Shown: in pieces, positions 5,163 to 46,427 of the stretch | Layout of the letters: each line of letters starts with the position of its first letter | Position numbering within the stretch: the stretch's first letter is position 1 | Assembly: GCF_965363235.1 (NCBI RefSeq) | Contig: NC_134847.1 | Coordinates: 69,910,935 to 69,974,934, forward strand | Source: Mytilus galloprovincialis | Taxonomy: Eukaryota | DNA length: 64,000 nucleotides | Direction: 5' to 3' | Notes under the pieces: generated by a model | The model's input: the letters and a program-made list of their open reading frames with translations, nothing else | Told to the model about the DNA's origin: nothing | The model's database searches: none | Made by a program: the position numbers and the translations under genes

Positions 5163-5489
5163 ATGGCACCTGGTGATAACATGTTTATAGTTAAATATGT
5201 TTTGTTCTTTTTAAATGTGTTCAGTCCGGGTCAAACTGAAACAAACATTTTTCGCATTCACCCTGATCGGCTTGATTCTAAGCTGCAAGGATACATTTAT
5301 TTAACATTTGAGAAAATATCACCGAGGTTATGCTTTAACAAATGTATACGGAGGCCAAATTGCCACTCGTACAACTATAATAAAGCTGTGCTGACATGTG
5401 AACTAAATAACAAGCCAAAATCAGTATCTACTGAGGATTTCTATTTTCAGAAAGGATATGTATATGTTGAAATTGACCAGTACAGAGGG
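5163..5489 (+). CDS. Mucin-like gene exon 1: start codon, signal peptide and a PAN/apple-like 4-Cys module.
   Basis: ATG at 5163, with a second ATG at 5181. Hydrophobic MFIVKYVLFFLNVFS. RLCFNKCIRRPNCHSYNYNKAVLTCELN. Donor GTATGT at 5490, phase 0. Confidence 0.6.
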
Positions 5490-6184
5490 GTATGTAAAAA
5501 TTTCATATGATAAGGAAAATAATATCTTTTTACCTATGTTTTTCGAATTATTGTACTATTCTGAAAGAAAGTTTAGTTTTGAGCATTGCGCGTGATTCGT
5601 TATGACAGGAATATAATTAGAGTCATAATCAGTTCTAAACTAAAGCATGGATATATTTTTTAAAGTCACATGAGACTTTAGATTAAAAAACAACGTTGCA
5701 TATGTTTTATATACTAACATAAGACCAAGTTTTATAAAACAAGTGTACATGGACCTTCTTTTGAAAGAAAATTCTTTCTCCTACCACATTCTTCAGAAAT
5801 GTAATGCGATTGAATTGTTGTCTTCCCGTATAATAATTCGCCTTTAGCTTTTCCATATGCAGTTAGCATATATAGCAACGAGTCAATCTTTAGTAATTCG
5901 GTAACCTCACAGCGCAAGTGAGAGAGAGAGAAACGAGGCGAAAGAAAGGATACCTTAAATAAATGTAGAGGTTAGATCATGTATATTGATTCTAAAAGAA
6001 AAAACACAAATTTTAAGTTACACATATTATAATACAACAGACGCTTTTGACATAGATCGCTTTTTTTAGTATGTTTTCGGTGTTTGAGGTTTTATGTTAA
6101 ATTTTCTTAATTATTTCTACAAGTTTTCACATATTTAATGCATTGCTGCTCTCGTCTTTCCAATTTTATAATAAAAGTAGTTTA

Positions 6185-6722
6185 AGGGGCTCGCGGGTCT
6201 AAATCCATTTTATTTAATTTAATATAGGATTTCTCTATATTTTTTTTATAAATGAATTTTATCTTATACTTAATAGAAAAATAGAAAAAAAAATGGGGTC
6301 ACCGTTCATTTACCCTCACAATCTGCCTTCGAAAGAAGCATACATTTTTGTTAATGTCCTTTTTTCTGTTGAAATAATAGGAGAAATAGCGGTAATATCG
6401 ATATAAAAAAAGAACTAAATTACAGAAATCGCTAAAATTTTACAATTATTTAGTTTATGTACAGCTTATTCGAAAACAACCTTAAAAAATTATAGGTCAC
6501 CGATGAGTAAAAAAAGATATTTCAATTTTAATGTCAAAAAATGGCATTTTTGCACAAAAGGGAGATAATTTAGAGCTTTTTCAATGATATGTACATTTTA
6601 AAAGTCACCTGGGGCCAACACGAATTGATTTTTGAGAACAACTACTTAAGGTAATAAATAAAATTTGTAATGAAAAATTAATGTTTAATTTTTTTCTGAA
6701 CATCTTATACCCGCGAGCCTCC
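6185..6722. mobile_element. MITE of about 540 bp with 17-bp TIRs (TTAAGGGGCTCGCGGGT ... ACCCGCGAGCCTCCTTAA), TTAA-flanked, lying in mucin-gene intron 1.
   Basis: The inverted termini at 6185-6201 and 6706-6722 were read directly. TTAA sits at both ends, which is piggyBac-like target preference. Confidence 0.55.
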
Positions 6723-6840
6723 TTAAGTGTTGATATGATCATCGGTATGGTCATTATTTTAAAATAAATGTTTACAATACTTTGAATTTTTAAAATAAGT
6801 ATGCTTTTCTATCTCTGGAATAGATTACTTTGACTGTATT

Positions 6841-6980
6841 TGGCAACAACACTCTAAGGATTTTTTTTTATCCTCAATGCTCATCAACTTCGTACTTTAT
6901 TTGGCCTTTTTAACTTTTAATAATTCGAGCGTTACTGATGAGCCTTTTTTAGATGAAACGAGCGTCTGGCGCAAATACAA
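6841..6980 (+). repeat. Degenerate paralogue of the hammerhead-bearing repeat. CTGATGA and GAAAC are retained but helices II and III are disrupted.
   Basis: gagcgttaCTGATGAgccttttttagatGAAAcgagcgtctggcgc. Pairing is lost relative to the copy at 1008-1053. Confidence 0.4.
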
Positions 6981-7199
6981 AATGTCAAAGATGAATTGGT
7001 GAATGTTATGTAATTGTAAGATCTCACGGATGAGGATGAGCAAAAACACATTGAAAAGTGGAATAATTATCTATCCAGTTGGTTTTTTTTCAATATTAAA
7101 TATTGGCCTTGTTTGTTCATTGTGAAGATCATTAAAGACACCAGCGGTTACATTGGTATTATATACTTTTATCTCATGATTCCGTCTCAATATTTTCAG

Positions 7200-7293
7200 G
7201 ACTCGCTACTGGATCCATGTCATAGAAAGCCCTGCCAGTCAGCAGAGATTTGTGAAATAAAACTGGATGGAAACACATTTTGTGTAAAAGATA
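7200..7293 (+). CDS. Mucin-like gene exon 2: EGF-like Cys module (DPCHRKPCQSAEICEIKLDGNTFCVKDS).
   Basis: Acceptor tattttcag at 7199 and donor GTAAGT at 7294. Phase-0 entry matches exon 1. Phase-1 exit (a) joins AA of exon 3 to give Lys. Confidence 0.55.
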
Positions 7294-8726
7294 GTAAGTA
7301 CACAATTTAAGATAAAGGTATCTTTGATTATCTGAAACATTTGTAAAATTTCTGTTTTGTGCATGATCAAAAAGATTTTTTGTTGTAATGAATTTAGAAA
7401 AGGGAGGGAAAGGTTAGGTGGAATAATTCTTGCCTTGATTTTTTCATACTTAACAAAAGAGTTAATGTCATTTTTTTTTAAGAAACAATGATTATAAAGG
7501 CAATGATGCTATAGTATAAAAACAATACGTTTATCAAAATAATTAAGCGTCTAATGATGGAACGACTAGTAATTTTAATATTTATTGATAAAGTTTTATC
7601 ATTGTCATTTAATGATTATAACTTTTGACATAGTACTGTCTAACCTACAAATACTATGCCATCGGATATAATAAAAAAATACGAAACAATTCGAAAGTAA
7701 AAACCAACGGCATGATTTATTCAAAAACAACAAATAAAGCACAATGTATGTTTGATAGGAAAAAGCAAAAAAAAATAACGCCGTGTCTTTAAAAACATTA
7801 GGACGAAATTCCAATAACGTTGTTGCCTATAGCACTTCGTAAAAATAGCAGCATGCAACATAAAAATAATATGACAAAAAATTCCGAACTCCAAGGAAAA
7901 TTCAAGTCGGAAAGTCGCTTATCAAATGGCAAAATCAAAAGCTCAAACACATTAAAGGAATAGATAACATCTGTCATATTCTTGACTTGGCACATACATT
8001 TTCTTATGTAGAAAATGGTGGATTGAACATGGTTTTCTAGCTAACTTATCCTCTCTTTTGTATGGCAGTCGCTTAAAATTGCAATATATTGACAACAATG
8101 TGTGAACAAAACAAACAGACTTAAATGATAGAAATGTCAAAAACTGAGTAGTCATTCTTGTGTTAAAATTTAATTACTATAAAAACAAACAACTCTGTCA
8201 ATAAAATGGCCAATAGCACATCACTTCAGCCAAAATGGAAGACAAGAGTACAAAAAATGTTCATAGCACAATACAAAAATGACTGGATATTAGTATATGA
8301 ATACCGAGGCATGTCAAAAGAATTTCAGGGAAAATGGACTTAACAGTATAGGCTAAAGATATTCATATACAAGTAAAAGAACACGTCGCAAAACATTGAA
8401 ATTGAACGTTTAACAGTCGAGTACGATCCAGATTTGGCTGAAAATCAAACAAAAAGTATGATCAATGCCGATTTTTACATCTAGTTTGATTAATCTTGAG
8501 AGGAATAATTATGCAAAGTGTCTTCATGTAAATCAAGAAACATGTTCTCCGAAGTCACGTAAGATAGTTTCGGCCCTATTAAAATATTTTCTCAGCTCTT
8601 ATCTTTTACATGATATAGAATCAGATAACATGCCTATTGCCTGCAGCCCATTTATAAAAGGTTTTACTTAGAGCAACAACCAGTGAGAAAAGTATCATAT
8701 AGTGAAGTGTATTTACTCTTTTTCAG

Positions 8727-11700
8727 AACCTATTACCACTACAACAAAAGACAATACAAAATTTCTCAATACTGGTACTTCAACAACGCAAATGAAAACA
8801 CTAACATCAATTTCTCGAATAGCCACAACAACTGAAGCAGCTAAAACCGTCACGTTTGATACTACTGCTGAGATACCATTAACAACAACCAAAGGTACAA
8901 TTGTCTCTGAGACCCATAGATCAAAATCTTACAAAACAACTCCTACAACAGCAACAACTTTGCTAGAGACAACCGCTTATAAATCATCGGTCTCTCCAAT
9001 TACTCATGACCAACCAATGGGATTTGCAGACACTATAGCTAGCTCTATGGCGCCAACAAAAATATTAACATCCCTCTCTGACATTCAGACGATTGCCTCT
9101 TATACAGATGATACGACTGTGACAGACACATCAATTGATACAGATGCTTTCGCAGCGGCAGAAAACATCGAACTTATTTCTAGATATAGTACTACTGGCA
9201 TTACCACTAAGACTATTGACAAAACCGATGATATTCTATTGACAAACACAGAAGGTACTACTGTATCTGAGACTCATAGACGAACATCTAATGATGCAAA
9301 TCTTCAAGTAGCAACAACATTGCTAGACACAACAGCTGAGCAAGCTTCAGTCTCTCTAATTACTGACATTAGACTGATGGAAACTACAAACACTATAGTA
9401 AGCTCAGTAACCCCAATAAAAACGTCAGCATTCATTTCTGAGAGTCATACGATTGGCTTTTTAACGATTGATGAAGCTCCTGTCACAACTGCCAAAACCA
9501 TTGAACTTACATCTATATATAATACTTCTGGCACTACCGCTGACATTCAATTGACAAACACAGAAGGTACAACTGCCTCTGAGACACAAGGACCAACATT
9601 TGACGAAGCAACTTACACAGCAACATCAACATTGCTAGAGACAACTGCTGCTAAAGCTTCGAGCTCTCCGATTAATTATGATAAACAGAATGAAATGACA
9701 GACACTATAGCTAGATCAGCAACGCAAACGAAAACACCGGTGTTTATTTCTGAGAGTCAAACGATTGGCTTTACAACAGATGGTAGTACTTTGACAGACG
9801 CAATAACTGATAAAGATACTAGTACTGTCACATCCGCAGACACCATAAAACTTACTTCTATATCGACAACTGGTGGCACTACCACTAACACTGTTGGTAC
9901 TTCTGCCCAACAGCCGTTGATAAAAGCCGAAAGTACAACTGTCTTTGAAACTCATGGGTCAACATCTGACGAAGTAACTCGCACATCAGCATCAACGTTA
10001 CATAAAACAACCACTCAAGCTTCGAACTCTCCGATTACTAATGATAACCAGACGAAAACAATAGCAAGCACAACAAATCCTGGGAGTACACCGCCATTCA
10101 TTTCTGACACTCAGACTATAGGTACTAAAACAAATGATACGACTGGTACAGCCGCAATAACTGATGGAGATACTGTTACAGCCGCAGAAACCTTCCAACT
10201 TACCTCTTTATCTTCTAATACTGTCACTTCCACTAAGACTGTTGGTACTACTGCAGACACACCATTGACAAACACAGAAGGTACATTTACTGTCTCTAAG
10301 ACTCATAAATCACCGTCTGACGAAACCACTCAAAGAGCTGCAGCAAACTTGCTAGAGACAACCGCTGATCAATCTTCGGTCTCTCAGATTACTAATAACA
10401 AATTGACAGAAACGACGGAAACCATAGCTAGACCAGAAACGCCAACACAAACGTCTACATCCATATCTGACAGTATGGCGATCGGCTTTACAACAGATGA
10501 TACTACGGCAACAGACACAACCACTAGTGAAACAACTGTCACAGCCGCAAAAACTATCGAACCCACTTCTTCATCAAATATTGTTGGCACTACAACTACC
10601 ACTTTTGGTACTACCGCAGAAAAACGGTTGATAGACACCGACGGTACAACTACTGTTTCCGAGACTCATGAATCACCATTTGACGACACGGCTCACACAG
10701 CAGCAATATCATTAATAGAGACTACCGCTGATCAAGCTTCGAGTTCTCCGATTACTTATGATGAACCGAGGGAAATATCGAACACTATAACTCACTCAGC
10801 AACGCCAACAAAAACAGCAGCAACCATTTCTGAGAGTCAAACAATTGACTTTACAACAGATGGGAGCACTGTGACAGACGCAATACCTGATGAAGATGCT
10901 GTCACAGCCGCAGAAACCATCAAACGTACTTCTATATCGTATAATGTTGGCACTACCACTCACATTGTTGGTATTTCTGCCGAAAAGCCGTTGATAAATA
11001 CCGAAGGGACAACTTTCTTTGAGACTCATGGGTCGAAATTTGACGAAACAACTCGCACCGTAACAACAACCGCTCAGCAAGCTTCGTACTCTCCGCCTAC
11101 TTATACAAAACTGAGGGAGACGACAGAAACAGTGGTTGGCTCAAAAACCCAAACGAAAACACCGGCATTCATTTCTAACACTCAGCCAATTGGCTCTAGA
11201 ACAGATGATACGACTATGACAGACACAACAATTCGTGAAGTTTCTGTAACAGCTGCAAAAACCATCAAACTTTCCTCTATATCAAATAATATTGGTACTA
11301 CCGAAGAAACCCCATTGATAAACACCGAAGGTACAACTACTGTCTCTGAGACTCACGAACTAGCATCCGACGCAACAACTCACACAGCAGCAACAACCTT
11401 GCTAGAGACAACAATCGAACAAGCCCTGGTCTCTCCGACTACCAATAATAAACTGAGGGAAATGACGGAGACTATAGCTAGCACAGCAATGCCAATTAAA
11501 ACTCCAGCATTCATTTCTTCCAGTCTGACGATTGGCACTACGACCGATGAAACGACTTTGACAGCCACAACTATAAGGGAAGCTATTGTCACATCCGCAA
11601 AACCAATCGAACTTACCTCTATATCTTATGCTGTTGACACTACCACCAACACTATAAGTACTCCGTTGACAAACACCAAAGGTACAATTGTCTCTGAGAC

Positions 11701-14443
11701 TCAAGGACCAACATTTGACAAAAACACTCACACAGCAGCAATAACCTTGCTAGAAATAACTTCTGATCAAGTTTCGAATTCTCCGATTACCAATGACAAC
11801 ACGACGAAAACGTTGGATAGTTTAGCGAGCACAGTAAATACAGTGAAAACACCGGCATCCATTTCTGACACTGAGACTATTGGGACTAGCATAAATGATA
11901 CGACTTTGACAGACGCAACAACTGATGAAAATACTGTTACAACTACCAAACATATGTCTCTTAACATTGGCACTTCTACCAAGACTATTAGTACAACCGC
12001 AGAAATACAGTTGACAAACACAGAAAGTACATCTTTTGTCTCTGAGACTCGTGGATCACCACCTGACGAAACCACTCACACAGCAGCCACAAACTTGCTA
12101 GAGACAACCACTGATCAATCTACGGTCTCTTCGATTACTAATTACAAATGGACAAAAACGATGGAACCCTCAGCTAGACCAGAAACGCCAACAAAAACGT
12201 CTACGTCCATATCTGACTCTCAAACGATCGGCTTTGCAACAGAAGATACTACGGCGACAGACACAACAACTAGTAAAGCTATTGACACAGACCTTAATAC
12301 CATTCAACTTACCTCGATGTCTAATACTGCTGGCATTACCACTAAGATTGTTGGTAGTATTACCGATAAACATTTGACAAACACAGAAGGTACAACTACT
12401 CTTTCTGAGACTCATGAACCAACATCTGACGAAACATTTTTCACAGCAGCAGCAACCCTGCTAAAGACCACAGCTGATCAAACTTCGGTCTCTCCGATTA
12501 CTAATGATAAACCAAGTCAAACGACGGAAATCATATCTAGCTCAATAACGCCTACGTCCATATTTGACACTCGGACGATCGGCTTTACAACAGATGATAC
12601 TCCGATGACAGACACAACCAGTGAAGCTACTGTAACAGCTGCAAAAACCATCAAACTTACCTCGATGTCTAATACTGTTGGCACAACCACAAGGAACATT
12701 GGTACTACTAGTATCACCGATAATTATTTAAAAAACACACAAGGTACAACTTCTGTTTCTGAGATTCATGGACCAATATCTGACGAAACAACTTACACAG
12801 CAGCAATAACCCTGCTAAAGACCACCGCTGATCAAGCTTCGGTATCTCCGATTACTATTAATAAACCGACGGAAACGACGGAAACCATAGCTAGCTCGAA
12901 AACGCCAACAAAAACGTCTATATCCATATCTGGTACTCAAACGATCGGCTTTAAAACAGATGATACTACGATGATAGAAAAAACAAATAGTGACGCTACT
13001 GACAAATCCGCCAAAACCATCCAACTTACATTGATATATAATACTGTTGGCATAATTACAAGGAACATTGGTACTATCACCGATAATTATTTAACAAACA
13101 CACAAGGTACAACTACTGTTTCTGAGATTCATGGACCAATATCTGACGAAACAACTTACACAGCAGCAACAACCCTGCTAAAGACCACTGCTGATCAAGC
13201 TACGGTCTCTCCGATTACTAATGATAAACCGACGGAAACGACGGAAACCATAGCAAGCTCTAAAACGCCAACAAAATCATCTACATTCATATATGACACT
13301 CAAACGATCGGCTTTACAACATATGATACTACGATGACAGACAAAACAACTAGTGACGCTACTGACACACCCGCAAAAACCATCCAACTTACCTCAATAT
13401 CTAACACTATTGGCCTTACCACTAGGCCTATTGGTTCTATCAGCGAGAAACATGTAACAAACACTAAAGGTACAACTACTGTTTCTGAGATTCATGGACC
13501 AATATCTGACGAAACAACTTACACAGCAGCAACAACCCTGCTAAAGACCACTGCTGATCAAGCTACGGTCTCTCCGATTACTAATGATAAACCGACGGAA
13601 ACGACGGAAACCATAGCAAGCTCTAAAACGCCAACAAAATCATCTACATTCATATATGACACTCAAACGATCGGCTTTACAACATATGATACTACGATGA
13701 CAGACAAAACAACTAGTGACGCTACTGACACACCCGCAAAAACCATCCAACTTACCTCAATATCTAACACTATTGGCCTTACCACTAGGCCTATTGGTTC
13801 TATCAGCGAGAAACATGTAACAAACACTAAAGGTACAACTACTGTTTCTGAGATTCATGGACCAATATCTGACGAAACAACTTACACAGCAGCAACAACC
13901 CTGCTAAAGACCACTGCTGATCAAGCTACGGTCTCTCCGATTACTAATGATAAACCGACGGAAACGACGGAAACCATAGCAAGCTCTAAAACGCCAACAA
14001 AATCATCTACATTCATATATGACACTCAAACGATCGGCTTTACAACATATGATACTACGATGACAGACAAAACAACTAGTGACGCTACTGACACACCCGC
14101 AAAAACCATCCAACTTATCTCAATATCTAACACTATTGGCCTTACCACTAGGCCTATTGGTTCTATCAGCGAGAAACATGTAACAAACACTAAAGATACA
14201 ACTACTGTTTCTGAGGCTCATGGATCAATATCTGACGATTCAACTCACACAGCAGCAACAACTCTGCTAAAGACCACCGCTGATCAAGCTTCGGTCTCTC
14301 CGATTATTAATGATAAACCGACGGAAACGACGAAAACAATATCTAGCTCGGAAACGCCAACAAAAACGTCTACATCCATATCTGACACTCAAACGATCGG
14401 CTTTAAAACAGATGATACAACGATGATAGAAAAAAACAACTAG
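8727..14443 (+). CDS. Mucin-like gene exon 3: about nineteen tandem 121-aa (363-bp) Thr/Ser-rich repeats, ending at TAG 14441-14443.
   Basis: Acceptor ctctttttcag at 8726 and phase-1 entry. Long open frame of 8702..14443. Repeat unit ...TNTEGTTVSETHGPxSDETTYTAATTLLKTTADQASVSPITNDKPTETTETIASS.TPTK.S.SISDTQTIGFTTDDTT.TD.TTS.AT.TAAKTI.LTS.SN.VGTT. The last three units (13141-14229) are identical. Confidence 0.75.
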
Positions 14444-15650
14444 TGACGCTACTGACACATCCGCCAAAACCATCCAACTTACCTCAATATCTAATACTGT
14501 CGGCATAATTACAAGGAACATTGGTACTATCACAGATAATTATTTAACAAACACACAAGGTACAACTACTGTTTCTGAGATTCATGGACCAATATCTGAC
14601 GAAACAACTTACACAGCAGCAACAACCCTGCTAAAGACCACTGCTGATCAAGCTACGGTCTCTCTGATTACTAATGATAAACCGACGGAAACGACGGAAA
14701 CCATAGCAAGCTCGAAAACGCCAACACAAACATCTACATTCATATATGACAATCAAACGATCGGCTTTACAACATATGATACTACGATGACAGACAAAAC
14801 AACTAGTGACCCTACTGACACAACCGCAAAAACCATCTAACTAACCTCGATATCTAATAATGTTGGCTTAACCACTAGGACCATTGGTTCTATCAGCGAG
14901 AAACATGTAACAACCACTAAAGGTACAGCTACTGTTTCTGTGACTCTTGGACCAATATCTGACGAAACAACTTACACAGCAGCAACAACCCTGGTAAAGA
15001 CCACCGCTGGTCAAGCTTCGGTCTCTCCGATTACTAATGATAAACCATCGGAAATCATAGCTAGCTCGGAAACTCAAACAAAACCGTCTACATTCATATA
15101 TGACACTCCAACGATCGGCTTTACAACAGATGATACTACGATGACATACACAACAACTAGCGAAGCTACTGTAAAAGCTGAAAAAACATCCAACTTACCC
15201 CGATATCTAATACTGTTGGCATAACCCCAAGGACCATTGGTACTATCACTGATAATTATTTAACAATAAATCGACGGTAACGACAGAATTAATAGCTAGC
15301 TCGGAAACAGCAACAAAAATGTCTACATTCATAATTGACATTCAGACGATCAGATTTACAACAGATGATACTACGATTACAGACACAACAACTAGCGAAA
15401 CTAGTATAACAGCAGCAAAAACCATCTAACTTATCTCGATATTTAATACTACTGGCATAACCACTAGGACCATTGGTAATATTACCGATACACATTTGAC
15501 AAACACAGAAGGTACAACTACTGTTCCTCAGCCTCACGAACCAACATGTGACGAAACTACTTACACAGCAGCAACAACCCTGCTAAAGACCACCGTTGGT
15601 CATGCTTCGGTCTCTCCGAATACTAATGATAAACCGACCAAAAGACCAAC
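14444..15650 (+). pseudogene. Decayed continuation of the mucin repeat array (about 3.3 more units) with frameshifts and stops.
   Basis: The same 363-bp unit continues. The frame shifts by +1 after an A6 to A7 change at about 14430. An in-repeat TAA (accatcTaactaacc) lies near 14836. ORF 14940..15224 is a residual in-frame piece. Confidence 0.5.
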
Positions 15651-15655
15651 AAAGT

Positions 15656-16040
15656 GAAAAAGTATATTTAAACAAAACGCATTTGACTAAAAGGTCGAAT
15701 ATATATATACAAGTCTAAATTGAAAACTACGTTCAAACCTCTGATTGCGTTTGATAAAAACCGCAATTTTTATACGTGTGCATGTAAAACAAGTTTCGTT
15801 GTAGAAGGGTCTAAATACAGTATATATATATTAGTCAAATGCGTTTTGTTTAAATATACTTTTTTCACTTTTTTGGTCTTTTGGAAAATGTTGTTTTTGC
15901 TGTATTTAGACCATTCTACAACGAAATTTGTTTTACATGCACACGTATAAAAATTGCGGTTTTTATCCAACGGAATCATAGGTTTGAACGTAGTTTTCAA
16001 TTTAGACTCGTTTATATCAGGAACATATATATTAACCATG
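15656..16040. repeat. Compound palindromic hairpin element. Arms 15716-15850 and 15900-16036 are inverted; an inner pair 15656-15690 and 15832-15866 is also inverted.
   Basis: +ORF 15720..15950 and -ORF 15770..16039 give near-identical peptides (KTTFKP..DKNRNFYTCACKT), which is the signature of inverted arms. Confidence 0.6.
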
Positions 16041-16379
16041 TTTATGATATACTGTTCCCAGTTTATTTATATATATATATTGCTAGATCAAAACCATATT
16101 TTATCTATATACAATGTATATACACAATAAAAAAAAAGTTTATGAAATTATTGTATAAAATATGTTTAGATTTTAAATTATTTCCCTAGTATGTGCCTTC
16201 TTGTAAAAGATTATGCAAAAACTGCAAACAAATTGAAGATCATATTCATTTCTTTTTGTATTTTAATAGAAACCATAATAATAGAAAAGTTTATTTTGAT
16301 TTTTTGATAAATGAGAATATGCACTTTATAAATTTATATGACATAGATAAAATAATATATATACTCAACCCAAGATAAC

Positions 16380-18527
16380 ACATGCATATTAAGCTAGGAT
16401 CCCTTTTAACACAGTCTCGTGAGTCTATTGAACTGAAGACAGGGGACTCTCGTTTAAAAGAACTTGATAAAAAGCTAGAAGATGCTGAAAAAAATAAATG
16501 TTTCAATGATCTAGATTTTCCAATAAAGGACTCAGAAATATATTCTGCTATTGGTAGATTAAAAATGGATAAAGCTCCTGGATTAGATCATATTAGCAAC
16601 AACATTTTTAAAAGAGGCCAAATTTTCTTAACAAAATGTTTAATTAAATTGTTTAATACCAGTTTATTATATGGTTTATATCCTTAATCATGGGCGGAAA
16701 GATATATAAAAAAATGCATAAAGGTGGCGATAAAGATGAACAAAGTAACTATAGAGGCCTGACAATCACCAGCTGTGTTGGTAAATTATTCAATTGCATA
16801 TTAAACTCTAGATTGGATAATATTTTAATAAAGCATAATAGATGACTCTCAGATTGGTTTCACAAAAAAGGCTAGAACATCTGACCATATATTTATATTA
16901 AAATGCATTATTGATAAATACTGTTCACATATGATATTAAAGGATGGTAGAGTGTTTGTCTGCTTTGTTGATTTAAGAAAGGCTTTTGACACTGTAATTC
17001 ATACAGGATTAAGACTTAAACTCTTAGAAATAGGGGTTGGTACTAAATTTTATAATGTTATTAAGAATATGTACTCTGTAAGTAAATCTTGTATAAAAAC
17101 AAGTAACACTGCTCGCATTGAAATGTTTGATAGTAAATTGGGAGTTAAGCAAGGCGACAACCTAAGTTCTAACTTGTTCAAAATATTTATTAATGACCTT
17201 CCTTCATTACTGAAACAAACATCAGATCCAATTATACTAAACTCTCGGCATATACATTGTTTGATGTATGCAGATGATATTTTTCTGCTCTCTTCCTCAT
17301 CGCATGGTCTTCAACAAAAACTAGATAATTTAGACATGTTAGATAAGTTTTGCAAACAGTGGTGTCTTACTGTAAATTTATCTGAAACCAAAGTACTTAT
17401 ATTCAATAAGGCAGGCAGACATCTCAAATATAATTTCAAATACAATGGAAAAATTGTTGAATGTGTAACCGAATGTAAATATCTTAGCATTACTTTTTGT
17501 TCATCTGGATCTTTCTCCAGACCTATGCTCAAAATGAACTTTATCAGAAGGGTCTAAAGGCTTATTTTAAACTGTGCAAGGAATTTATTTCTCACTGTCC
17601 TTCACCTTAAATCTCATTACATGTATTCGATCATTCTATTATGCCAATATTATTATATGGTTGTGAAACTTTGGGTTATTTTAATCCCTTTACAACAAGA
17701 TTGAAAAAAAAACCCTGATTTGTCCTTTGATGAAATTTATAAAAGAGTTAAATGTGGAAAAATGCATGTTAAATTATGTAAATTTGTTTTGGTTGTGGGA
17801 AAAAGAGTACACATTTTGCCTCCTTGTCATAACTTGGCAGATTAACCACACATTTTAATATCGTCAGTTCAATGCTTAAATATTGGCACTGTTTAGAAAA
17901 TTTACATAATCAATTTCCAATTCTAAAAGATGTCTATTTAACTTCCATAGAGTTGTACGAAAATAAACATCCTTCTTGGTATGGCTCTGTTTATATACAG
18001 AAAAACAGAATTTTTGATAACCATACTGACTTAACATGCTTAGAGTCAATGAAAACAAATAGTTTTAAGAAGACATGTAAAAAAATATATGAAAATTCAT
18101 TATATTAATCTTTGGCAAAAAAAAAAAAAAAACCATCATTATCAGACGGCAAACTGTGTACATACTTCAAGTTTAAACAAAATTTTGGATTTGAAAATTA
18201 TTTGAATATATTATAAAAGATTTTGGGCAGAGGAGAATTTTCACCAGATTCAGAATATCACCTCATAGACGTCAAAATGTTCAAATAGAGTTGGGAAGAT
18301 GTCAAGGTATTATCAGGCAAAATAGATTGTGTGTTCATTGCACATCTGGCAAGGTAGAAGATGAGATCCATTTTTTACTAACATGTACAAAGTATAAAGT
18401 TGAACGTTATGATCTTATAAATGCTATTTGTCCTAATTTTACCCAATTACAAAATCCTGAAAAATTTATTTGGATGATGAATAATGAAGATCATGAAATA
18501 TATGTAAAATTTGCTGTCGTATAGCCA
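16380..18527 (+). mobile_element. 5'-truncated, frameshifted non-LTR retrotransposon (LINE ORF2: RT domains, thumb, C-terminal CCHC). CR1/L2-like.
   Basis: KAPGLDHISNNIFK. YRGLTITSCVGKLF (other frame). FVDLRKAFDTV. MYADDIFLLS. SIMPILLYGCETLG. C-terminal RLCVHCTSGKVEDEIHFLLTCTKYKVER (18291..18524). No endonuclease region. Confidence 0.7.
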
Positions 18528-20812: not shown

Positions 20813-21589
20813 TATATAAATTAATATTACCTCATCCTCTTCATGTGAATTATAATTTTAATTTTATCTTCATTATATGTTTATGTGTTAAGAATCAGAA
20901 TGTATTGTGTATTGTTGTCATAAATGTCCCGTCAGGGCCCTTAATTGGAAAATAAAGAACTTTGAACTTTGAACTTTGTAGTAAAATAAATCAACTATAG
21001 ATCATTGTTATTTTTAGAACAGGAAGTCATTCGACGGTTAACCTAAACATTAAAAAAATTTCCCGATCACTGTCACATATTTTACAAAAAACGCAGTTAT
21101 TGTATTCATCATGACGGGGACCTGTTGAAGCAAAATATGCTGCATTAATCAAACAGCAACGAGAAATTTGTTAAAGTTAACAACTAATTTGCATAGGTAG
21201 ATATTGAATTACAAATGATCAAAAACAGCAAAATTCTAGGGATTTTCAAAATATTTCAATATTTACTTTTAGGGAAGGACAGGAAAATATTCATATAAAT
21301 TTTCATTCTATCCTAGGACAATCGTCCAATGGAACCTTTTACCAATTACTGCTGTCCAATGCACCACAGTTGAAGCATTCAGAGAACAGATTCCTATATC
21401 TGTTCTCAACCAATACTACACCATGTAATGTAACACCTTGTAAATAGTTTTATCTTATATGTACAGTGAAAATCAAAAACAAGTTATTATTTCTTTATTA
21501 ATTTTTTTTAATGTAAGTATAAAATTGTAAATTTTACCCCCGCATGCATGGCACATAGTTATCAATATTATGATGGAGTGCAGAAACTA

Positions 21590-21995
21590 AAAGAAGAAGA
21601 AAAGGGGGGGTAGTGGCAGGGTGGGTATCAGCTCTGTTCACACCCAATACACTTTCGCACCCTACACGTTCGCACCTCCCACATTCGCACCCAAAGTCCG
21701 TTCGCACCCTACACTTTCTCACCCAATTTTAAAGCAAATTCTAGTTGAATAATTAGAAAATCATGATTGTTGTTTAAACAGAGTGGCTATTTTTATTAGG
21801 GTGTACCACTGACTGCTTTAGAAAGGGGAGGGACTCCAAGCTTCAGTGATTCCTTCAATAATCAACCATTTTTTTCAACAAAATAAGGGGCTGGGCACCC
21901 TGGTGAATCCGGGTCTGTTCGCGCCCATTCACTTTCGCGCCCAGTCTCATTCTCACCCTTTCACTCTCACACCCTACACATTCGCGCCCAATTTT
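21590..21995. repeat. Two blocks, 21600-21725 and 21900-21995, of a 13-20-bp minisatellite (CACWTTCGCRCCC), each preceded by a G-rich lead (gggtatcagctctgttc / ccgggtctgttc).
   Basis: Read directly. This is a local duplication of a lead-plus-array unit about 300 bp apart. Confidence 0.5.
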
Positions 21996-23762
21996 TTATT
22001 GGTTTTGTGTTTAATGACTTTGTAATCAAGTTTTGGCATGCACATTGCAATGGCCGGACAAATAGCCCTGGCAATTAATTTTGGTGAGGTTCGTTTTCAT
22101 TATCTAATGGGTTAAATACTTAATGCAAATTTTTCCATTTTAATTTGGTTAGAATACATTGCAAACTTTTCAAGAAATATTTTTCTTCATGATCACCTCG
22201 TCAGAAATTTAAAATAAGCATGAATAATATCATGGCCAAATAAACAATAAAACTTAAGACATAATTCTGCATCTTATGGTATCTATTTTATAAAAATCAC
22301 TCAAAGAGCGACTTGGTAATAATTTTTTGAAAATATTGATTTTAGTTGAAATAATAGGACATTTTTTGAGTGGTAACTCACTTTTGTCCGAGGACTGTAT
22401 ATTCTAATGGGAGAAATTCCGGTCACAAGGTCATGTAGTGAGGACATAATAAAGGTAACAGTAATTGTTGGTGCATGATGTTAAAATGTACTTTATTTTT
22501 AATGATAAAAAAATCGACCGATTTTGACAAATCACTTAAAAAAATTCAAATATGACTGTTATGATTATTATTTGGGACTTCTGACTAATCACAATAAGGA
22601 TATATGTAGACAAATCACAGTAAAATTTAACCAATTTGATGCTAATGGTAGCCAGAAATTACCGTTGGACATCCTTTTGGTAAAGGGAATTTACTACCCT
22701 CATGGTAGCTACATGTAGGTAGGCATTTTTGGGTTTTTTTTTAATGGCAAACTCAAGTCAGATATTTTTTAGTCTTCATGAGTAGAAGAAAAAAACTTTA
22801 TCACATCAGTACAATAAAAGATTTTGAGTAGGCAGCTATTTTCTAGGTAGGTAAACATATATGCATTTATGGCCTTATTAAAAAAATTTGTATTTTTAGC
22901 TGCACTAGTCAGTATAAGATAAATGTAATTGTTGCTCTATTTTTACTCGTATAACAATCTTGTTTGAGTGCACACACCTAATGTAATTGCTTTCACTCTA
23001 AGCAAATGCTAAGGAAACTTCACTATATTAATTGAAGTTATATAGAGTCCACTAGTGATGGGAGTGGATTCTGTCAGAAAATTTCAATTGAAAAAATGCC
23101 AGGGAAAATTTCAATTGAAAAAATTTCCAGGGAAATTATTAAGTTGTGATTTCTAATGTTTAATTTCAAATACCTTTCAAGGAAGACATTTATTACCCTT
23201 GCCACCCCCACCTCAAATACCAACATACCCACCCTTTACACCTCAACTCATACTTTCTAACTTGATTAGTACTTGCTATGCTCCTAAGAGAGGAATTATA
23301 TAAACAAACAATGCACAGGAATAGAAAGTTTTAAAGAAAAAAATTGGATAATCGGGAGAAAAGGGTTTGAGAAAAAGAACATGTAAAAAAAGTAATATGT
23401 TGTTGGATGTAAGATCATATATATTGTGAATTAAAGCAATTGATGCCATTTCTATATATAACTTTATTCAGTAGAATAATAAGTTACAAAGTCTTAATAA
23501 TTAATTTGTTCATAACTATTTTAAATGTTTCTTTGTACATGTATAAGCCAAACTATCAAACTAAAATTTATACCATAACTGCACATATACATTTTTTTTT
23601 TATTTGCAGTCAATTAAAGTAGAATCACATAGAGTATCTTTTCGGATGAGAATTTGGAACAATTGTAGCTGTAACAGGTATATCTTTTCATATTATCCAT
23701 CTTCTTTTCAAGCCTGTTCACATAGACACATACTCTTAAACGTCTCTTTATTTTCTCAATTA

Positions 23763-23900
23763 AAAGATGATGTGGTATGATTGCCAATGAGTCGACTATC
23801 CACCAATGACCATAAGTGACATGTATTTATGCAGGCCTGTAGATCATTGCTTGGCCTTTAACAATGATTATCATCCTGTGTGCAATTCCAAGACCAGCAT
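23763..23900 (+). mobile_element. SINE-like family fragment (AAGATGATGTGGTATGATTGCCAATGAG head) about 90 bp upstream of PARP4-like exon 1.
   Basis: The head motif matches copies at 2886, 36700, 49295 and 60676. Confidence 0.45.
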
Positions 23901-23989
23901 ACTTCTATGAGTCTATTTATTTGGTATCTCTATCATGAATGGTTTATAATCAGTGTGTTTGATCCATGATTTTTTTCTTCAGATAAAAG

Positions 23990-24118
23990 ATGTCGATATT
24001 TAGTGATTGTCAAATTGTCCTTGATTTGACAACCAGTGTCAACTTTAAGAAAAAGACAGAAATCAGGAAAAAGATAACTAATAATGGAGGAGTTATATCA
24101 TATATTGTCACTAAAAAG
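23990..24118 (+). CDS. PARP4: PARP4-like exon 1: start codon and N-terminal half of the BRCT domain.
   Basis: MSIFSDCQIVLDLTTSVNFKKKTEIRKKITNNGGVISYIVTKK parallels the vault-PARP N-terminus (IF.NC.F.L...KK...I..NGG..S). Donor AAG|GTAAAC at 24119. Phase 0 joins exon 2 at 34164. Confidence 0.6.
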
Positions 24119-24175
24119 GTAAACATCATAGAACTCGCCATTTACCAATTTCCAGATTTTAGAATTTTATACTAA

Positions 24176-24240
24176 GAAGATGTGGGGTATGATTACAATG
24201 CGAAAACTATAATCCAACAGAATTCAAATGACCAATATAA
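24176..24240 (+). mobile_element. SINE-like family fragment (head only).
   Basis: gaagatgtggggtatgattacaatgcgaaaac. Confidence 0.35.
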
Positions 24241-25032
24241 CAACAATTTTACCTTTTTTTTTATTAGTTTTCATTCATCTGGACAGTTGAATTTAAATGT
24301 TATCAAGAAATAAAAAAATAAAAATTGAAGTATGAGAAACCATATAGATATTAGGGTTTCAATAAATGGCATAAACTGAGCTGGAGTTATTTCCCTTAGT
24401 CATCATTTTGAAGGTGGTTGATTTTAAACTAGATTTTTTAAGGAAAAAAAGTCAGTTATTGATTTGGTGATATATGGCGGTGAGTAGGCTGCCAAACAAT
24501 GTCCATTCATTAACATGCAAACGCTTTGACATAATTTTTCAAATTCAGATATGTTGTTTCAAACTCAGACCATTTGTTACAAAACCTGGATGTTTAAATG
24601 TTGCTCTCGAAAAAACATGGACAATGCAAATCACAAAATTTTAAGTTAAATACAGTCAAACCTGCTTAAGAGACCATCTGTATTAAGCAAAACCCTGTAT
24701 CATACGACCATAAATTTAGATCCCTCTAGCTGTAGTACATTTCATATAGTTTGAACCTGTAATAAAAGACTACATGTCTTCATGAGAGACCACTTTTTTG
24801 TTCTCCCTTAACTTTACTGGTCTCTAAAAACAGGTTTCACTGTACAATAATATTTTGTGACTTTTTTGCTCTAAACATGTATAGTATTCAAAATAAGATG
24901 GACAGTCACGAATAAGACTGTTATAATTAGGAAATAGCACTTGTTTTATCACGAAAAAAAAACCCCACAAGATCTGCATCCGAAAAAAAGTGGACGAATT
25001 CACTTGAAAAGAACACAATCTTTGCCAGACAC

Positions 25033-25055
25033 TATATATATATATATATATATAC
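25033..25055. repeat. (TA)n microsatellite.
   Basis: Read directly. Confidence 0.8.
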
Positions 25056-25157
25056 CTACTGTTCAAAGAGCATTTTTATTAGTTGCCCAAATTTCATTTC
25101 TTGGATTTAAAACTGTGAATTAAGAAATTATTGTGTGCATTTATATTATTATTGTGA

Positions 25158-26310
25158 CTTTTTATACGACTGCAAAAAATGTTTGAGGTCGTATATTGGT
25201 ATGACGTTGGCACATTGGTTTTCGCACTATCACTTTAGTTTTTGTAAATAGAAATCTATGAAAATTAAACGCAAGGTTTGTGACCACTAAAGGAAGGTTG
25301 GGATTGATTTTGGGAGTTTTGGTCCCAACAGTTTAGGAATTAGGGGCCAAAAAAGGGCCCAAATAAGCATTTTTCTTGGTTTTCGCACAATAACTTTAGT
25401 AAAAGTAAATAGAAATCTATGAAATTTAAACACAAGGTTTATGAACACAAAAGGAAGGTTGGAATTGATTTGGGAGTTTTGGTCTCAACAGTTTAGGAAT
25501 TAGGGGCCAAAAAGGGGCCCAAATAAGCATTTTTCTTGGTTTTGGCACCATAACTTTAGTATGAGTAAATAGAAATCTATGAAATTTAAACACCATAAAA
25601 GGAAGGTTGAGATTGATTTTGGGAGTTTTAGTCCCCACAGTTTAAGAATTAGGGGCCCAAAGGGTCCAAAATTAAACTTAGTTTGATTTCATCAAAAATG
25701 GAATAATTGGGGTTCTTTGATATGCCGAATCTAACTGTGTATGTAGATTCTTAATTTTTGGTCCTGTTTTCAAATTCGTCTACAATAAGGTCCAAGGGTC
25801 CAAAATTAAACTTAGTTTGATTTTAACAAAAATTGAATTCTTGGGGTTCTTTGATATGCTGAATTTAAACATGTACTTAGATTTTTGATTATGGGCCCAG
25901 TTTTCAAGTTGGTCCAAATCGTGGTCCAAAATTAAACTTTGTTTGATATCAACAAAAATTGAAACCTTGGGGTTCTTTGATATGCTGAATCTAAACATGT
26001 ATTTAGATTTTTGATTATAGGCCCAGTTTTCAAGTTGGTTCAAATCGGGGTCCAAAATTAAACTTTGTTTTATTTCAACAAAAATTGAATATATGGGGTT
26101 CTTTGATATATGCTGAATCTAACCATGCATTTAGAATTATGATATTTGGGCCCGGTTATCAAATTGGTCCACATTGAGGTCTAAAGGGTCCAAAATTGAA
26201 CTTTATTTGATTTCATCAAAAATTGAATTCTTTGGGTTCTTTGATATGCTGAATCTAACCATGTAATTAGATTTTGGATATTGGACCATAATAGGTAAAT
26301 GTCCAATTTA
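25158..26310 (+). mobile_element. Satellite-bearing non-autonomous composite element, copy 1. This is the 5' part; its 3' tail resumes at 33647-33756 after the nested Ngaro.
   Basis: Starts ctttttatacgacYgcaaaaa...ggtcgtata (9-bp hairpin) as in copy 2 at 50643. Contains satellite I (units of about 150-171 bp, 25215-25640) and satellite II (units of about 126-138 bp, 25662-26290). Both satellites carry GGGCCC. Confidence 0.6.
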
Positions 26311-27320
26311 TACAAAATTCTCAGAAATGATCCTGAATATGTTTAATTGTCATTTGTTCCATGTTTGCAATGTGTTCTGATTCTTTGTAAATATTTTTTA
26401 GGGTAAATTTATTTCTGTTTGATGTGATGCTGTTCTAATCTTATTTTAATTGTCTTTTGTTTATACTGTATCTTTTCTGTGGTAATCTGTTATGTAATAG
26501 GGAAATGTGTGTTAACACCTGAGCAAACATCCAACCTCATATCTTCTTGCAAATTCTTTGACCTGACAATTAAACCATCCTGATCTAACTTTCGGTCCTA
26601 TATTTTAATTTTGCTAATAAATGTGTCAGTGAACAAAATCCTCAAAGTCACACATAATGAGTTCATATTAATTTCATAGTAATTTAAATAATTTAATTAC
26701 CCCTGATTTCTTTCAGAACACACTGTTTGAACTCATGATATGTAAAATTAAGGATTTAGTGCTCACATTATTATCAACCTAATTTTTCCTGCTATCACCT
26801 ATCTTGTAAATAAACTCCTGGGAAATACTGTGTAGCAATGCCATTGGTATCCATGTTTGAATTAAACATAAATCATAATTTAATTGCAACTTTTATTTTA
26901 TATATATACATCACGATTATAATTTGGCCCTTGGGGAAACTACTCAGCTAAAAAATTTAATTTTTTGCTCCATGCCTAAACCAAGAGCCTAGCTATGTGC
27001 ATACTGAAAAGTAGCAAAGTATAGACCCCTGGCTTGACATCACACCAATCCAATTGGAACGATGGTTCAAAATAAATGCATGAGGCTATCAGGAAGCCTA
27101 TGAGGCTATCATTCCTAGAGGCTATCATGCCTATGAGGCTATGAGGAAGCCTATAATGAGACAATGAGGAAGCCTGTAAGGAGGCTATGAGGAAGCCTAG
27201 TAGTGTTGATGTTGAATTGGTGTTGGAATGAATTTGTATGAAATTTGACAGTTTATCCCCAGAAATTCTTGGGGGATGAGTGAAATTTTTGAAACAACCA
27301 GTGATAAAATTTCATAAATG
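26311..27320 (-). repeat. Ngaro terminal direct repeat, copy at the element 3' terminus. Contains ATGAGGCTATCA/GAGGAAGCCT subrepeats at 27087-27200.
   Basis: Identical, as read, to 27841-28856. Confidence 0.8.
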
Positions 27321-27398
27321 AAATCAATAAACATAATGCTGAGATTGCTTCCCCTGTCATGGCAATATTGAAGGTGAAAGGAGGGGTCGGTGGGAGGC

Positions 27399-27839
27399 AA
27401 GTTTTTAGCTAAAACCTATTAGCACTATTAGCCAAGATTATTCTATAACTGCTTAATCTGCATTTAGATAAATGAATACTCAAGGCAGCATACACAGGTT
27501 TTTAATACACAACTTCTTAATGGGATACTCCTAAGTGGGAGGAGTTAAAACTGCACCCAGATTAATGTATCAAGAAACAAAGGACAAAGGAAGCCAAATG
27601 CCACAAGTGGTCACTAATTAACAAGACATGTATATTTGTATTGGAACTGATGAAATTAGACCTCCTGCTAAGAACATGTGATAAACTTCATATCTAACTG
27701 ATTGACATATGATAATAAATCTGTTTCATCTCAACAGCAAAGAAAATACACATCCTGGGAAAATCCTAAAATAATGACTACTGAGTAATTAAAATCAAAT
27801 TATGTATAAACATACTTATATAACATATAAGTACCTATT
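27399..27839 (-). repeat. Ngaro internal copy of the 0.44-kb repeat, identical to 33203-33646.
   Basis: agtttttagctaaaacctattagcac...gtacctattta is present at both sites. Confidence 0.8.
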
Positions 27840-27840
27840 T

Positions 27841-28856
27841 ATACAAAATTCTCAGAAATGATCCTGAATATGTTTAATTGTCATTTGTTCCATGTTTGCA
27901 ATGTGTTCTGATTCTTTGTAAATATTTTTTAGGGTAAATTTATTTCTGTTTGATGTGATGCTGTTCTAATCTTATTTTAATTGTCTTTTGTTTATACTGT
28001 ATCTTTTCTGTGGTAATCTGTTATGTAATAGGGAAATGTGTGTTAACACCTGAGCAAACATCCAACCTCATATCTTCTTGCAAATTCTTTGACCTGACAA
28101 TTAAACCATCCTGATCTAACTTTCGGTCCTATATTTTAATTTTGCTAATAAATGTGTCAGTGAACAAAATCCTCAAAGTCACACATAATGAGTTCATATT
28201 AATTTCATAGTAATTTAAATAATTTAATTACCCCTGATTTCTTTCAGAACACACTGTTTGAACTCATGATATGTAAAATTAAGGATTTAGTGCTCACATT
28301 ATTATCAACCTAATTTTTCCTGCTATCACCTATCTTGTAAATAAACTCCTGGGAAATACTGTGTAGCAATGCCATTGGTATCCATGTTTGAATTAAACAT
28401 AAATCATAATTTAATTGCAACTTTTATTTTATATATATACATCACGATTATAATTTGGCCCTTGGGGAAACTACTCAGCTAAAAAATTTAATTTTTTGCT
28501 CCATGCCTAAACCAAGAGCCTAGCTATGTGCATACTGAAAAGTAGCAAAGTATAGACCCCTGGCTTGACATCACACCAATCCAATTGGAACGATGGTTCA
28601 AAATAAATGCATGAGGCTATCAGGAAGCCTATGAGGCTATCATTCCTAGAGGCTATCATGCCTATGAGGCTATGAGGAAGCCTATAATGAGACAATGAGG
28701 AAGCCTGTAAGGAGGCTATGAGGAAGCCTAGTAGTGTTGATGTTGAATTGGTGTTGGAATGAATTTGTATGAAATTTGACAGTTTATCCCCAGAAATTCT
28801 TGGGGGATGAGTGAAATTTTTGAAACAACCAGTGATAAAATTTCATAAATGGCCAT
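27841..28856 (-). repeat. Ngaro internal copy of the 1.01-kb repeat.
   Basis: Identical to 26311-27320. Duplicate ORFs 26976..27164 and 28507..28695 give the same peptide. Confidence 0.8.
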
Positions 28857-29079
28857 AACACAGATGGTAACAGCTGAGTGTCCCCAAGGATTTGTGAGGT
28901 TAGGGAGGGGGTACCTTCAATAAAGCCATGAAATAAAAAAAAAATAAAAAAATAATAAAAATAATAAATGTTATCACATAATAATACACAATATCAAAAT
29001 CAATTGTCAAACAAAAACAATATCATCTAGAATCTCTGTAAAAAACATGTGTATGGAATATTTGAAAATGAGCATGCCC

Positions 29080-31553: not shown

Positions 31554-31682
31554 AGTATCAAATCCTTTCTCTAAGCCATTGCATAAATAGTTAACAGATT
31601 TTTTGTCAGGATGAGAAATTAATTCTTTTGCAAGTATAATAACATTAATTGGAGTAGTAGCCAGATATGGGAAATCATGTAG

Positions 31683-33083: not shown

Positions 33084-33202
33084 TTTGTTGTCAGTTAATC
33101 CAAAATAATGTTTATTGTTTCAGGTTATATAGTTTGAATTATATTTAGTTGTTTAAAAACTGTCATATAGCTTTTGTAAAGTAATCCAAACACTGAAAGT
33201 TC

Positions 33203-33646
33203 AAGTTTTTAGCTAAAACCTATTAGCACTATTAGCCAAGATTATTCTATAACTGCTTAATCTGCATTTAGATAAATGAATACTCAAGGCAGCATACACA
33301 GGTTTTTAATACACAACTTCTTAATGGGATACTCCTAAGTGGGAGGAGTTAAAACTGCACCCAGATTAATGTATCAAGAAACAAAGGACAAAGGAAGCCA
33401 AATGCCACAAGTGGTCACTAATTAACAAGACATGTATATTTGTATTGGAACTGATGAAATTAGACCTCCTGCTAAGAACATGTGATAAACTTCATATCTA
33501 ACTGATTGACATATGATAATAAATCTGTTTCATCTCAACAGCAAAGAAAATACACATCCTGGGAAAATCCTAAAATAATGACTACTGAGTAATTAAAATC
33601 AAATTATGTATAAACATACTTATATAACATATAAGTACCTATTTAA
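33203..33646 (-). repeat. Ngaro 5'-terminal copy of the 0.44-kb repeat.
   Basis: Matches 27399-27839. Confidence 0.8.
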
Positions 33647-33756
33647 AAAATTTATAAGTTTTTAAGTTTAAGTTCTTAGACCACATTTATTCTGTGTCAA
33701 CTGTTCAGGGTTCGAACTCTGCGGCCGTATAAAGCTGCACCCTGCAGAGCATCTGG
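33647..33756 (+). mobile_element. 3' tail of composite element copy 1, displaced by the Ngaro insertion. Homologous to 52135-52296.
   Basis: aaatttWtaagtttttaagtttaagttcttagaccacatt...actgttcagggttcgaMctctgcgg...taaagctgcRccctgcagagcatctgg is shared by both copies. Copy 2 has an extra 60 bp. Confidence 0.6.
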
Positions 33757-46200: not shown

Positions 46201-46427
46201 AAAATCAGTAGGTGCACACCAAAAAAGCACAAGAAGCAAACAGTGCATTTATAGTTGTTCTTCTTCTAGGGGTAACAGTTAGGCCTACAATGCTGAGCAA
46301 AGAAACTCCCACCCTTCTGCAATTCCAAGACAACCACCAGCACCGGTCCTAGTAAAGTTTTGTGTACATACCACAGTATATTGTACAATTTAATTATATG
46401 TTACAATTTTTATTTTAATTTATACAG

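Follow-up and report, generated by a model that had tools for sequence, protein, structure and literature searches.

A putatively secreted PAN/EGF-like/mucin-like gene of Mytilus galloprovincialis and its tandem-repeat exon

LET-653 of Caenorhabditis elegans is a secreted apical matrix protein composed of PAN/apple domains, a mucin-like linker, and a ZP domain. Vertebrate mucin genes such as MUC22 and MUC3A contain one very large Thr/Ser-rich tandem-repeat exon that varies in copy number, known as a variable number tandem repeat (VNTR) exon (PMC13345508; PMC9417175), and lineage-specific "mucinization" from Pro-rich precursors has been described in mammals (Pajic et al. 2022, PMC9417175). The locus described here lies in a stretch of 64,000 nt of Mytilus galloprovincialis DNA (contig NC_134847.1), called the window below, and its coordinates count from window position 1. 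It is quite probably a three-exon gene for a putatively secreted protein of about 2045 amino acids (aa), consisting of a PAN domain, a four-cysteine module, and about 15.6 mucin-like repeat units, with an array that evolves as a VNTR.

The gene resembles the vertebrate VNTR exons in having a large Thr/Ser-rich tandem-repeat exon with copy-number variation, and it resembles the mucinization model (PMC9417175) in carrying a mucin-like body behind a head that belongs to a family of secreted, non-mucin proteins. Its homology to vertebrate mucins does not extend beyond composition, and it differs from them in its low Pro content (3.9%) and long unit (121 aa). Unlike MUC3A and MUC22 it has no SEA domain or transmembrane segment, and unlike gel-forming mucins it has no VWD or CTCK domain. 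In architecture, the likeness to LET-653 consists of a PAN/apple head with a Thr/Ser-rich region, whereas the mussel protein has no ZP domain and a far larger array. The gene is already public as automatic predictions but is uncharacterised; neither its accessions nor keywords on mucin, apple-domain, and mucus proteins of Mytilus led to any literature on it.

Gene model and head exons

The window is AT-rich, with about 31% GC; the exception is 8-16 kb, with 37-42% GC and a strong negative GC skew. Exons 1, 2, and 3 (Table 1) join in frame into a 6138-nt coding sequence for 2045 aa. Exon 1 ends in phase 0 at the donor GGG/GTATGT (a slash marks the exon border). Exon 2 is 94 nt long and ends in phase 1, with the acceptor TTTTCAG/ and the donor GATA/GTAAGT, and exon 3 follows the acceptor TTTTTCAG/. 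An alternative exon-1 donor between 5479 and 5480 was dropped because stop codons then arise in exon 2. Across exon 3, one frame stays free of stops between 8702 and 14443 (1913 codons), a span that includes the splice acceptor, while the remaining two frames meet a stop about every 20 codons.

Table 1. Features of the mucin-like gene and its repeat array, in window coordinates
Feature	Position	Strand	Description
Three-exon gene	5163-5489, 7200-7293, 8727-14443	+	Exon 1, exon 2, and coding part of exon 3
Exon 1	5163-5489	+	ATG, putative signal peptide, PAN/apple domain with 4 Cys
Exon 2	7200-7293	+	4-Cys EGF-like/follistatin-N-like hairpin DPCHRKPCQSAEICEIKLDGNTFCVKD
Exon 3, coding part	8727-14443	+	Acidic, Cys-free repeat domain of 1904 aa, rich in Thr and Ser; stop TAG 14441-14443
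Old diverged units W01-W10	8926-12423	+	312-366 bp each, mutual identity 65-81%
Young homogenised coding units W11-W15	12424-14229	+	Mutual identity 83-100%
Perfect 363-bp periodicity	13104-14117	+	1014 bp, 2.8 units
Near-identical triplet W13-W15	13141-14229	+	
A7 homopolymer	14430-14436	+	In W16; extra A shifts the frame to ...MIEKNN and TAG
Untranslated repeat-derived tail	14444-15643	+	Rest of W16, W17 14594-14956, W18 14957-15260, W19 15261-15544, 98-bp stub

The M. galloprovincialis model VDH98076.1 (P0152; UniProt A0A8B6BYW0, "Apple domain-containing protein", 1682 aa) unites all three exons, and its junction peptides are identical to those of the window (...VEIDQYRG/DSLLDPC...CVKD/KPITTTT). 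An earlier note on this DNA had proposed that the three exons join in compatible phase, and the coding sequence and the shared junctions agree with it. Together these comparisons support a real, single, secreted-type gene of PAN/EGF-like/mucin-like layout with predicted splices.

The N-terminus contains a putative signal peptide at residues ~7-20, with possible cleavage after SPG and a Kyte-Doolittle maximum of 2.3 at residues 7-17. The PAN/apple module that the earlier note had read in exon 1 was recovered by profile search: Pfam PAN_1 (PF00024) scores 26.8 bits over residues 53-90, where its gathering score is 21.4, and it also matches P0152, P0005, and the head paralogs. The four PAN cysteines in CFNKCIRRPNCHSYNYNKAVLTCE are invariant among P0001, P0002, and the window, and their disulfide pairing is presumed. 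The EGF module proposed for exon 2 fared differently, as the window protein had no match to the Pfam EGF family (PF00008 and relatives) at E<=1. Exon 2 encodes four cysteines rather than the six of the EGF pattern, as do all nine aligned paralog modules, only one of which matches Pfam EGF (E=0.0099). A profile of the paralog modules against the PDB placed the follistatin-like N-terminal hairpin of SPARC first (E=0.0025), followed by factor VII EGF1 (E=0.16). The exon-2 module is EGF-like by resemblance only and does not qualify for the EGF family.

Both head exons are present in related mussels. At the M. edulis locus (L002), the head is 99% (exon 1) and 100% (exon 2) identical to the window in amino acid sequence, which assigns the window to the M. 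edulis species complex. At the M. trossulus locus (L001), a PAN exon (88% aa identity) and an EGF-like exon (94%) stand upstream of a 2404-codon repeat open reading frame (ORF), with a PARP4-like neighbour downstream as in the window. Between the window and M. trossulus, the ratio of nonsynonymous to synonymous substitution rates (dN/dS) is 0.18 for exon 1 and 0.25, from few sites, for exon 2. Judged by these ratios, the head is constrained in sequence and under purifying selection.

The NCBI models of these two species, "mucin-3A-like" in M. trossulus and "mucin-22-like" (XP_071133558.1) in M. edulis, begin inside or just before exon 3. Database searches returned no annotated protein with the PAN exon from either species, and the canonical exon-2 donor is mutated in M. 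trossulus, where the GT of GATA/GTAAGT is AC (L001 8622-8660 versus window 7280-7320). Such observations would suit a stand-alone exon-3 gene, in which the PAN and EGF-like exons are another small gene or relics and no PAN-EGF-mucin protein exists. Against it, the head exons show the purifying selection given above, the exon-3 frame is open up to its acceptor, the head of every paralog is spliced in phase 1 to a body exon that follows it, and the M. galloprovincialis annotation joins the three exons. M. trossulus also has a substitute donor, AAAG/GTAAAT, 18 nt downstream of the lost one. It keeps phase 1 and would give ...CVKDNKYTIK/E..., which is exactly how the annotation joins the exons of P0005, a paralog in M. 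galloprovincialis. In addition, a stand-alone exon-3 product would not be secretable, because its first ATG (MKTLTS...) has no hydrophobic leader. A separate exon-3 gene is thus unlikely.

Under the three-exon model, the two NCBI models are probably 5'-truncated, since a product of exon 3 alone lacks a signal peptide; the omitted head exons stand 1.4-4.6 kb upstream of them. The M. trossulus exon-1 donor and exon-2 acceptor are identical to those of the window, and the window sequence along the downstream-donor path contains a TAA. The M. trossulus and window lineages appear to use different exon-2 donors of the same phase.

The repeat array and its turnover

The repeat array is a 363-bp tandem array at about 8856-15643 (Tandem Repeats Finder score 4392). 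BLAST of one unit against 8000-16500 returned a leading fragment (8856-8924) and then 19 consecutive full or partial units (8926-15643), with E-values down to 1e-151. The 5'-most units are 65-72% identical to the reference unit, and identity climbs along the array to 100%, in keeping with the diverged 5' units of the earlier note. That note had also counted about nineteen repeats, which holds for the DNA; only about 15.6 units of ~121 aa, all in one exon, are translated, and coding ends at 14443 rather than 15650. It was right that no C-terminal domain follows, as the ORF ends within the array. The repeat domain contains 28.4% Thr, 10.8% Ser, 3.9% Pro, and no Cys, with a net charge of -99.

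The mucin-like nature of this domain was assessed with the definition used in PMC9417175. Thr plus Ser averages 39%, with a minimum of 31% over 100-aa windows, where the mucin criterion is >20%, and the exonic tandem repeats that the definition calls for are present as ~15.6 units in one domain. With thresholds approximating those of PTSpred-type methods, Pro, Thr, and Ser (PTS) together reach at least 40% in 81% of these windows, and Thr plus Ser of at least 40% coincides with Pro of at least 5% in 22%. The definition also asks for a secretory signal peptide and for dense O-glycosylation, with >4% predicted sites or experimental proof; on this side the protein offers its hydrophobic N-terminus. 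Pfam on full-length P0152 found PAN_1 only, with no VWD, CTCK, SEA, or transmembrane features. Gel-forming mucin features (VWD-C8-TIL, C-terminal cystine knot) are absent from the protein, as is any C-terminal domain. Among membrane-tethered features, there is no SEA match, and the C-terminus (...GFKTDDTTMIEKNN) has no hydrophobic segment.

The proposed function follows this layout. The protein would enter the secretory pathway, and its Thr/Ser-rich array would be densely O-glycosylated and form an extended, acidic, mucin-like rod. This rod is expected to be non-gel-forming because VWD, CTCK, and cysteines in the repeat domain are absent. The disulfide-bonded PAN/4-Cys head would supply binding or docking.

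Selection on the repeats differs from that on the head. Although they vary between 312 and 366 bp, the 15 coding units all measure a multiple of three, compared with one of the four tail units, and unit indels stay in frame, giving translated units of 104-122 aa. For orthologous 5' repeat units of the window and M. trossulus, dN/dS is 0.85. The comparison shows repeats that are nearly neutral in sequence and constrained only in composition and frame, a pattern that a mucin-like domain would be expected to show.

The 121-aa unit could instead be a folded, beta-rich structural or adhesive domain rather than a disordered O-glycosylated segment. It is long and low in Pro, and it keeps hydrophobic positions (L12, I50, I56) and motifs (TIxLTSIS, TLLxTT); AlphaFold2 places several strands in its C-terminal half at a predicted local distance difference test (pLDDT) score of 50-63. 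The mean pLDDT of the unit is only 46.8 and its predicted template modelling score (pTM) 0.27. A control, the PAN-containing head of paralog P0001, reached a pLDDT of only 36.7 from equally shallow alignments, and because this control is also low, the unit model is uninformative, neither proving disorder nor excluding a fold. The between-species dN/dS, the many tolerated in-frame indels, and the Thr plus Ser content of 39% speak for the disordered segment, and no Pfam domain reaches its gathering score in the repeat (best Sigma_reg_C, 19.9 bits versus a cutoff of 25). A folded unit is accordingly given little probability.

The array contains old units toward its 5' end and young ones toward its 3' end. 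A self-comparison at an offset of 363 has zero mismatches for i = 13104..13754, and the perfectly periodic block that results is the most recent duplication. The earlier note had described three identical units across the W13-W15 triplet. This stands for the first two, 13141-13503 and 13504-13866, at 100% identity, but the third, 13867-14229, has five mismatches (98.6%), which cluster at its 3' end.

Unit-by-unit identity matrices were built for the window units (W) against those of M. trossulus (T) and M. edulis (E); these haplotype comparisons use assemblies, not reads. Units W04-W10 pair one-to-one with T01-T07 at 82-91%, although they are only 65-81% identical among themselves. Units W11-W19 have no such partner, with 72-85% identity to every one of T08-T17 (77-85% for W11-W15) but 78-100% within the window. 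M. trossulus has young copies of its own (T14-T16, 89-95%), including a visible three-unit higher-order duplication (T09/T12 89%, T10/T13 96%), and its orthologue differs from the window in the absence of the first three units, a homogenised core of its own, and a different stop.

M. edulis L002 has allelic flanks on both sides of a different core. W01-W11 correspond to E01-E11 and W16-W19 to E17-E20 at 97-99%, whereas the core holds W12 plus three W13-type units in the window and five W12-type 369-bp units, 97-99.5% identical to each other, in L002. The M. galloprovincialis protein P0003 is 94% identical to the window protein and has the same C-terminus, and its 90% cluster includes VDH98076.1, the M. 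edulis proteins XP_071133558.1 and CAG2205454.1, and an ENA ORF, three of these four ending in MIEKNN. The alleles share W01-W11 at 95-98% aa identity with the window, and compared with VDH98076.1 and related predicted models, there are three additional W13-type units in the window allele. The lengths predicted for full-length equivalents, 1561, 1682, 1682, and 2045 aa, lie multiples of 121 aa apart.

These matrices, and haplotypes with the same flanks but different cores, support concerted evolution by unequal crossing-over or gene conversion, the standard VNTR signature, and bear out the recent exchange proposed in the earlier note. Within the window, W12/W16 are 93% and W13/W17 94% identical, which suggests an older two-unit duplication and then a very recent W13 triplication. 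Conversion of the coding units from untranslated W17, to which W13-W15 are closest (94%), was rejected, since a two-unit duplication is more parsimonious. As the comparisons show, the 5' units are old and stably inherited, with one-to-one M. trossulus orthologues. Toward the 3' end, unequal crossing-over or gene conversion has time and again duplicated, removed, and homogenised units. Haplotypes consequently differ in their amplified unit types and unit numbers.

Identical 363-bp units are difficult to assemble when identity is 100% over 1 kb, and the database alleles from short-read assemblies carry fewer units. The identical units might therefore reflect mis-expansion or mis-collapse rather than a biological duplication. 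This is quite improbable given that an independent chromosome-level assembly of M. edulis has amplified another unit type at the same place, in five units at 97-99.5%. The five substitutions of the third W13-type unit cluster at its 3' end, as expected of a real junction and not of a duplicated consensus, and the 3' half is also homogenised at 84-94% identity, a range that is not assembly-sensitive.

Frame end and untranslated tail

The reading frame of exon 3 ends inside the array. It ends at 14443 because the A-run in W16 is one base longer (A6 to A7); sister units have A6 or CA4 at this site, with A6 in W12 and in M. edulis E13-E16. The slip leaves ~1.2 kb of repeat-derived untranslated sequence. 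In this tail, ~3.3 units long, a TAA at 14838 is in frame, and deletions have removed 1 bp and, between W18 and W19, 121 bp. An AATAAA lies at 15265 and another at 16126, beyond the tail. The tail consists of untranslated fossil units, presumably within the 3' untranslated region. The idea that it is translated after all, in a different frame or across an intron, was dropped, as the TAA at 14838 and both deletions persist after the A-run is corrected.

The MIEKNN C-terminus produced by the frameshift is common to P0003, P0152, P0153, and P0155, from M. edulis and M. galloprovincialis. An assembly error at 14436 was dropped as an explanation, since these four independent database proteins share the ending and the allelic unit of the M. 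edulis genome also carries A7. On the evidence of assemblies, the A7 frameshift is real and not private to this one. The M. edulis reference (GCA_963676685.2, OY782965.1, locus L002) has A7 in two units, E12 and E17, at L002 14177 and 16023. Its annotated protein consequently ends five units early, and a second ORF of 600 aa, made of nearly identical units, then follows. Either the slippage allele has truly spread or recurred in M. edulis, or its second A7 is a homopolymer error.

A frameshift, a nonsense-bearing tail, and near-neutral repeats (dN/dS 0.85) could also indicate loss of function in a decaying pseudogene. The A7 frameshift does truncate the array, and its second occurrence in the M. 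edulis reference cuts off five more units. Decay is nevertheless very unlikely for a gene with an open frame of 5.7 kb in an AT-rich genome, 2404 open codons in M. trossulus, coding-unit indels that all preserve the frame, and a PAN exon with a dN/dS of 0.18. A stop codon in the last exon does not trigger nonsense-mediated decay, so the truncated product would be no target of that pathway.

A nested foldback element, similar to a miniature inverted-repeat transposable element, adjoins the end of the array at 15657-16017. Its arms are 15657-15690/15831-15864 (34 nt, 100%) and 15703-15820/15900-16017 (118 nt, 94%). The element may mark the event that truncated the 3' end of the array.

The reading of the locus as one secreted, mucin-like gene with a VNTR exon has several points against it. 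The splice joins come from sequence comparison rather than transcripts, and XP_071133558.1 and the M. trossulus "mucin-3A-like" model begin within exon 3, without the PAN and EGF-like exons. The signal peptide is a hydrophobicity profile only, with a Lys within its h-region, and O-glycosylation is deduced from composition alone. The low Pro content speaks against a classical PTS domain, and low AlphaFold2 confidence decides neither disorder nor fold of the unit. Finally, the unit count of any one assembly may be wrong.

Shared head, neighbouring elements, and significance

The PAN/4-Cys head is shared by a family of Mytilus proteins. An exhaustive HMMER search with exon 1 returned 147 relatives at E<=0.001, and the closest are Mytilus proteins with the same PAN plus 4-Cys head (45-62% identical), marked by the invariant motif YRG...D.C....C...E.C.........C..D. 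The same head precedes a fibrinogen C body in XP_052066311.1 ("fibrinogen-like protein A"), EGF plus two kringles in XP_076103127.1 ("plasminogen-like"), F5/8 type C in P0006 and P0013, and a Thr-rich repeat body in P0005, which has the PAN-4Cys-repeat layout, and in this gene. Where this gene has a repeat array, the fibrinogen C, kringle, and F5/8 type C paralogs have a lectin-type or kringle body. The body of P0001 has no Pfam match and is F5/8-C-like by eye only.

At the M. coruscus P0001 locus, the head exons equal those of the window in length and phase: the first finishes in phase 0, and the second, of 94 nt, finishes in phase 1 with the GATA/GT position unchanged. In M. coruscus (L003 26263-34861), P0001 adjoins a MACPF/ApeC-domain gene, an immune-type neighbour. 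This pattern fits exon shuffling of a common head, with a mucin-like body gained here by a non-mucin family. A broader proposal, considered possible but rather doubtful, is that the two-exon head is a Mytilus phase-1 shuffling cassette, joined to fibrinogen-related, F5/8-type-C, kringle, and repeat bodies, and that within a lectin-like family of secreted proteins this gene became "mucinised". It would further include a mobile A6/A7 site that is copied by unit turnover (once in the window, twice in the M. edulis reference) and switches the number of translated units by haplotype.

The PARP4-like gene is the downstream neighbour of the mucin-like gene and occupies 20988-25154 and 34092-34499. 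The ORF at 34092-34499 has weak BRCT matches just under the Pfam cutoffs, and the start region is syntenic with an M. trossulus gene carrying BRCT, PARP, VIT, and VWA domains. Between the two genes sits a degenerate reverse transcriptase fragment of the non-LTR (long terminal repeat) type at 16382-17557 (RVT_1 E=3e-20 at 16931-17554), with frame interruptions upstream.

A young DIRS-order retroelement lies at 26303-33652, upstream of the BRCT-matching ORF of the PARP4-like gene. Its minus-strand ORFs (29083-33083) match RVT_1 (E=3.6e-9) and, below the Pfam cutoff, the tyrosine recombinase family Phage_integrase (E=1e-4). It has split direct repeats, A at 26303-27320 = 27834-28851 (99.9%) and B at 27398-27850 = 33202-33652 (99.6%), a layout typical of Ngaro/PAT-like elements.

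Units of 160 bp and 126 bp form tandem arrays at 25215-26279 and 51836-52099, and a related repeat of 136 bp stands 26 kb away. They share the motif GGTCCAAAA(T)TAAAC...TTTGATTTCAACAAAAATTGAATA and are probably a dispersed Mytilus satellite or a repeat derived from a transposable element. In a separate 4.3-kb satellite at 41935-46202, a 53-bp unit recurs ~80 times (96% matches); its GC skew is markedly negative, and its GC content exceeds that of the surroundings.

The locus offers a clean invertebrate case of single-exon mucin-type VNTR dynamics, with stable 5' units and a fast-turning core toward the 3' end. Such behaviour is expected of mucin repeat exons, and current understanding is not overturned. 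The analysis also suggests 5' truncation of the NCBI models for the orthologues in M. edulis and M. trossulus. Points of modest added interest are that several genes share one head cassette, that M. trossulus has shifted a donor without changing its phase, and that an A-run prone to slippage determines where translation ends. One PAN/4-Cys head with lectin-type, kringle, or mucin-like bodies may bear on the mucosal and immune biology of mussels.

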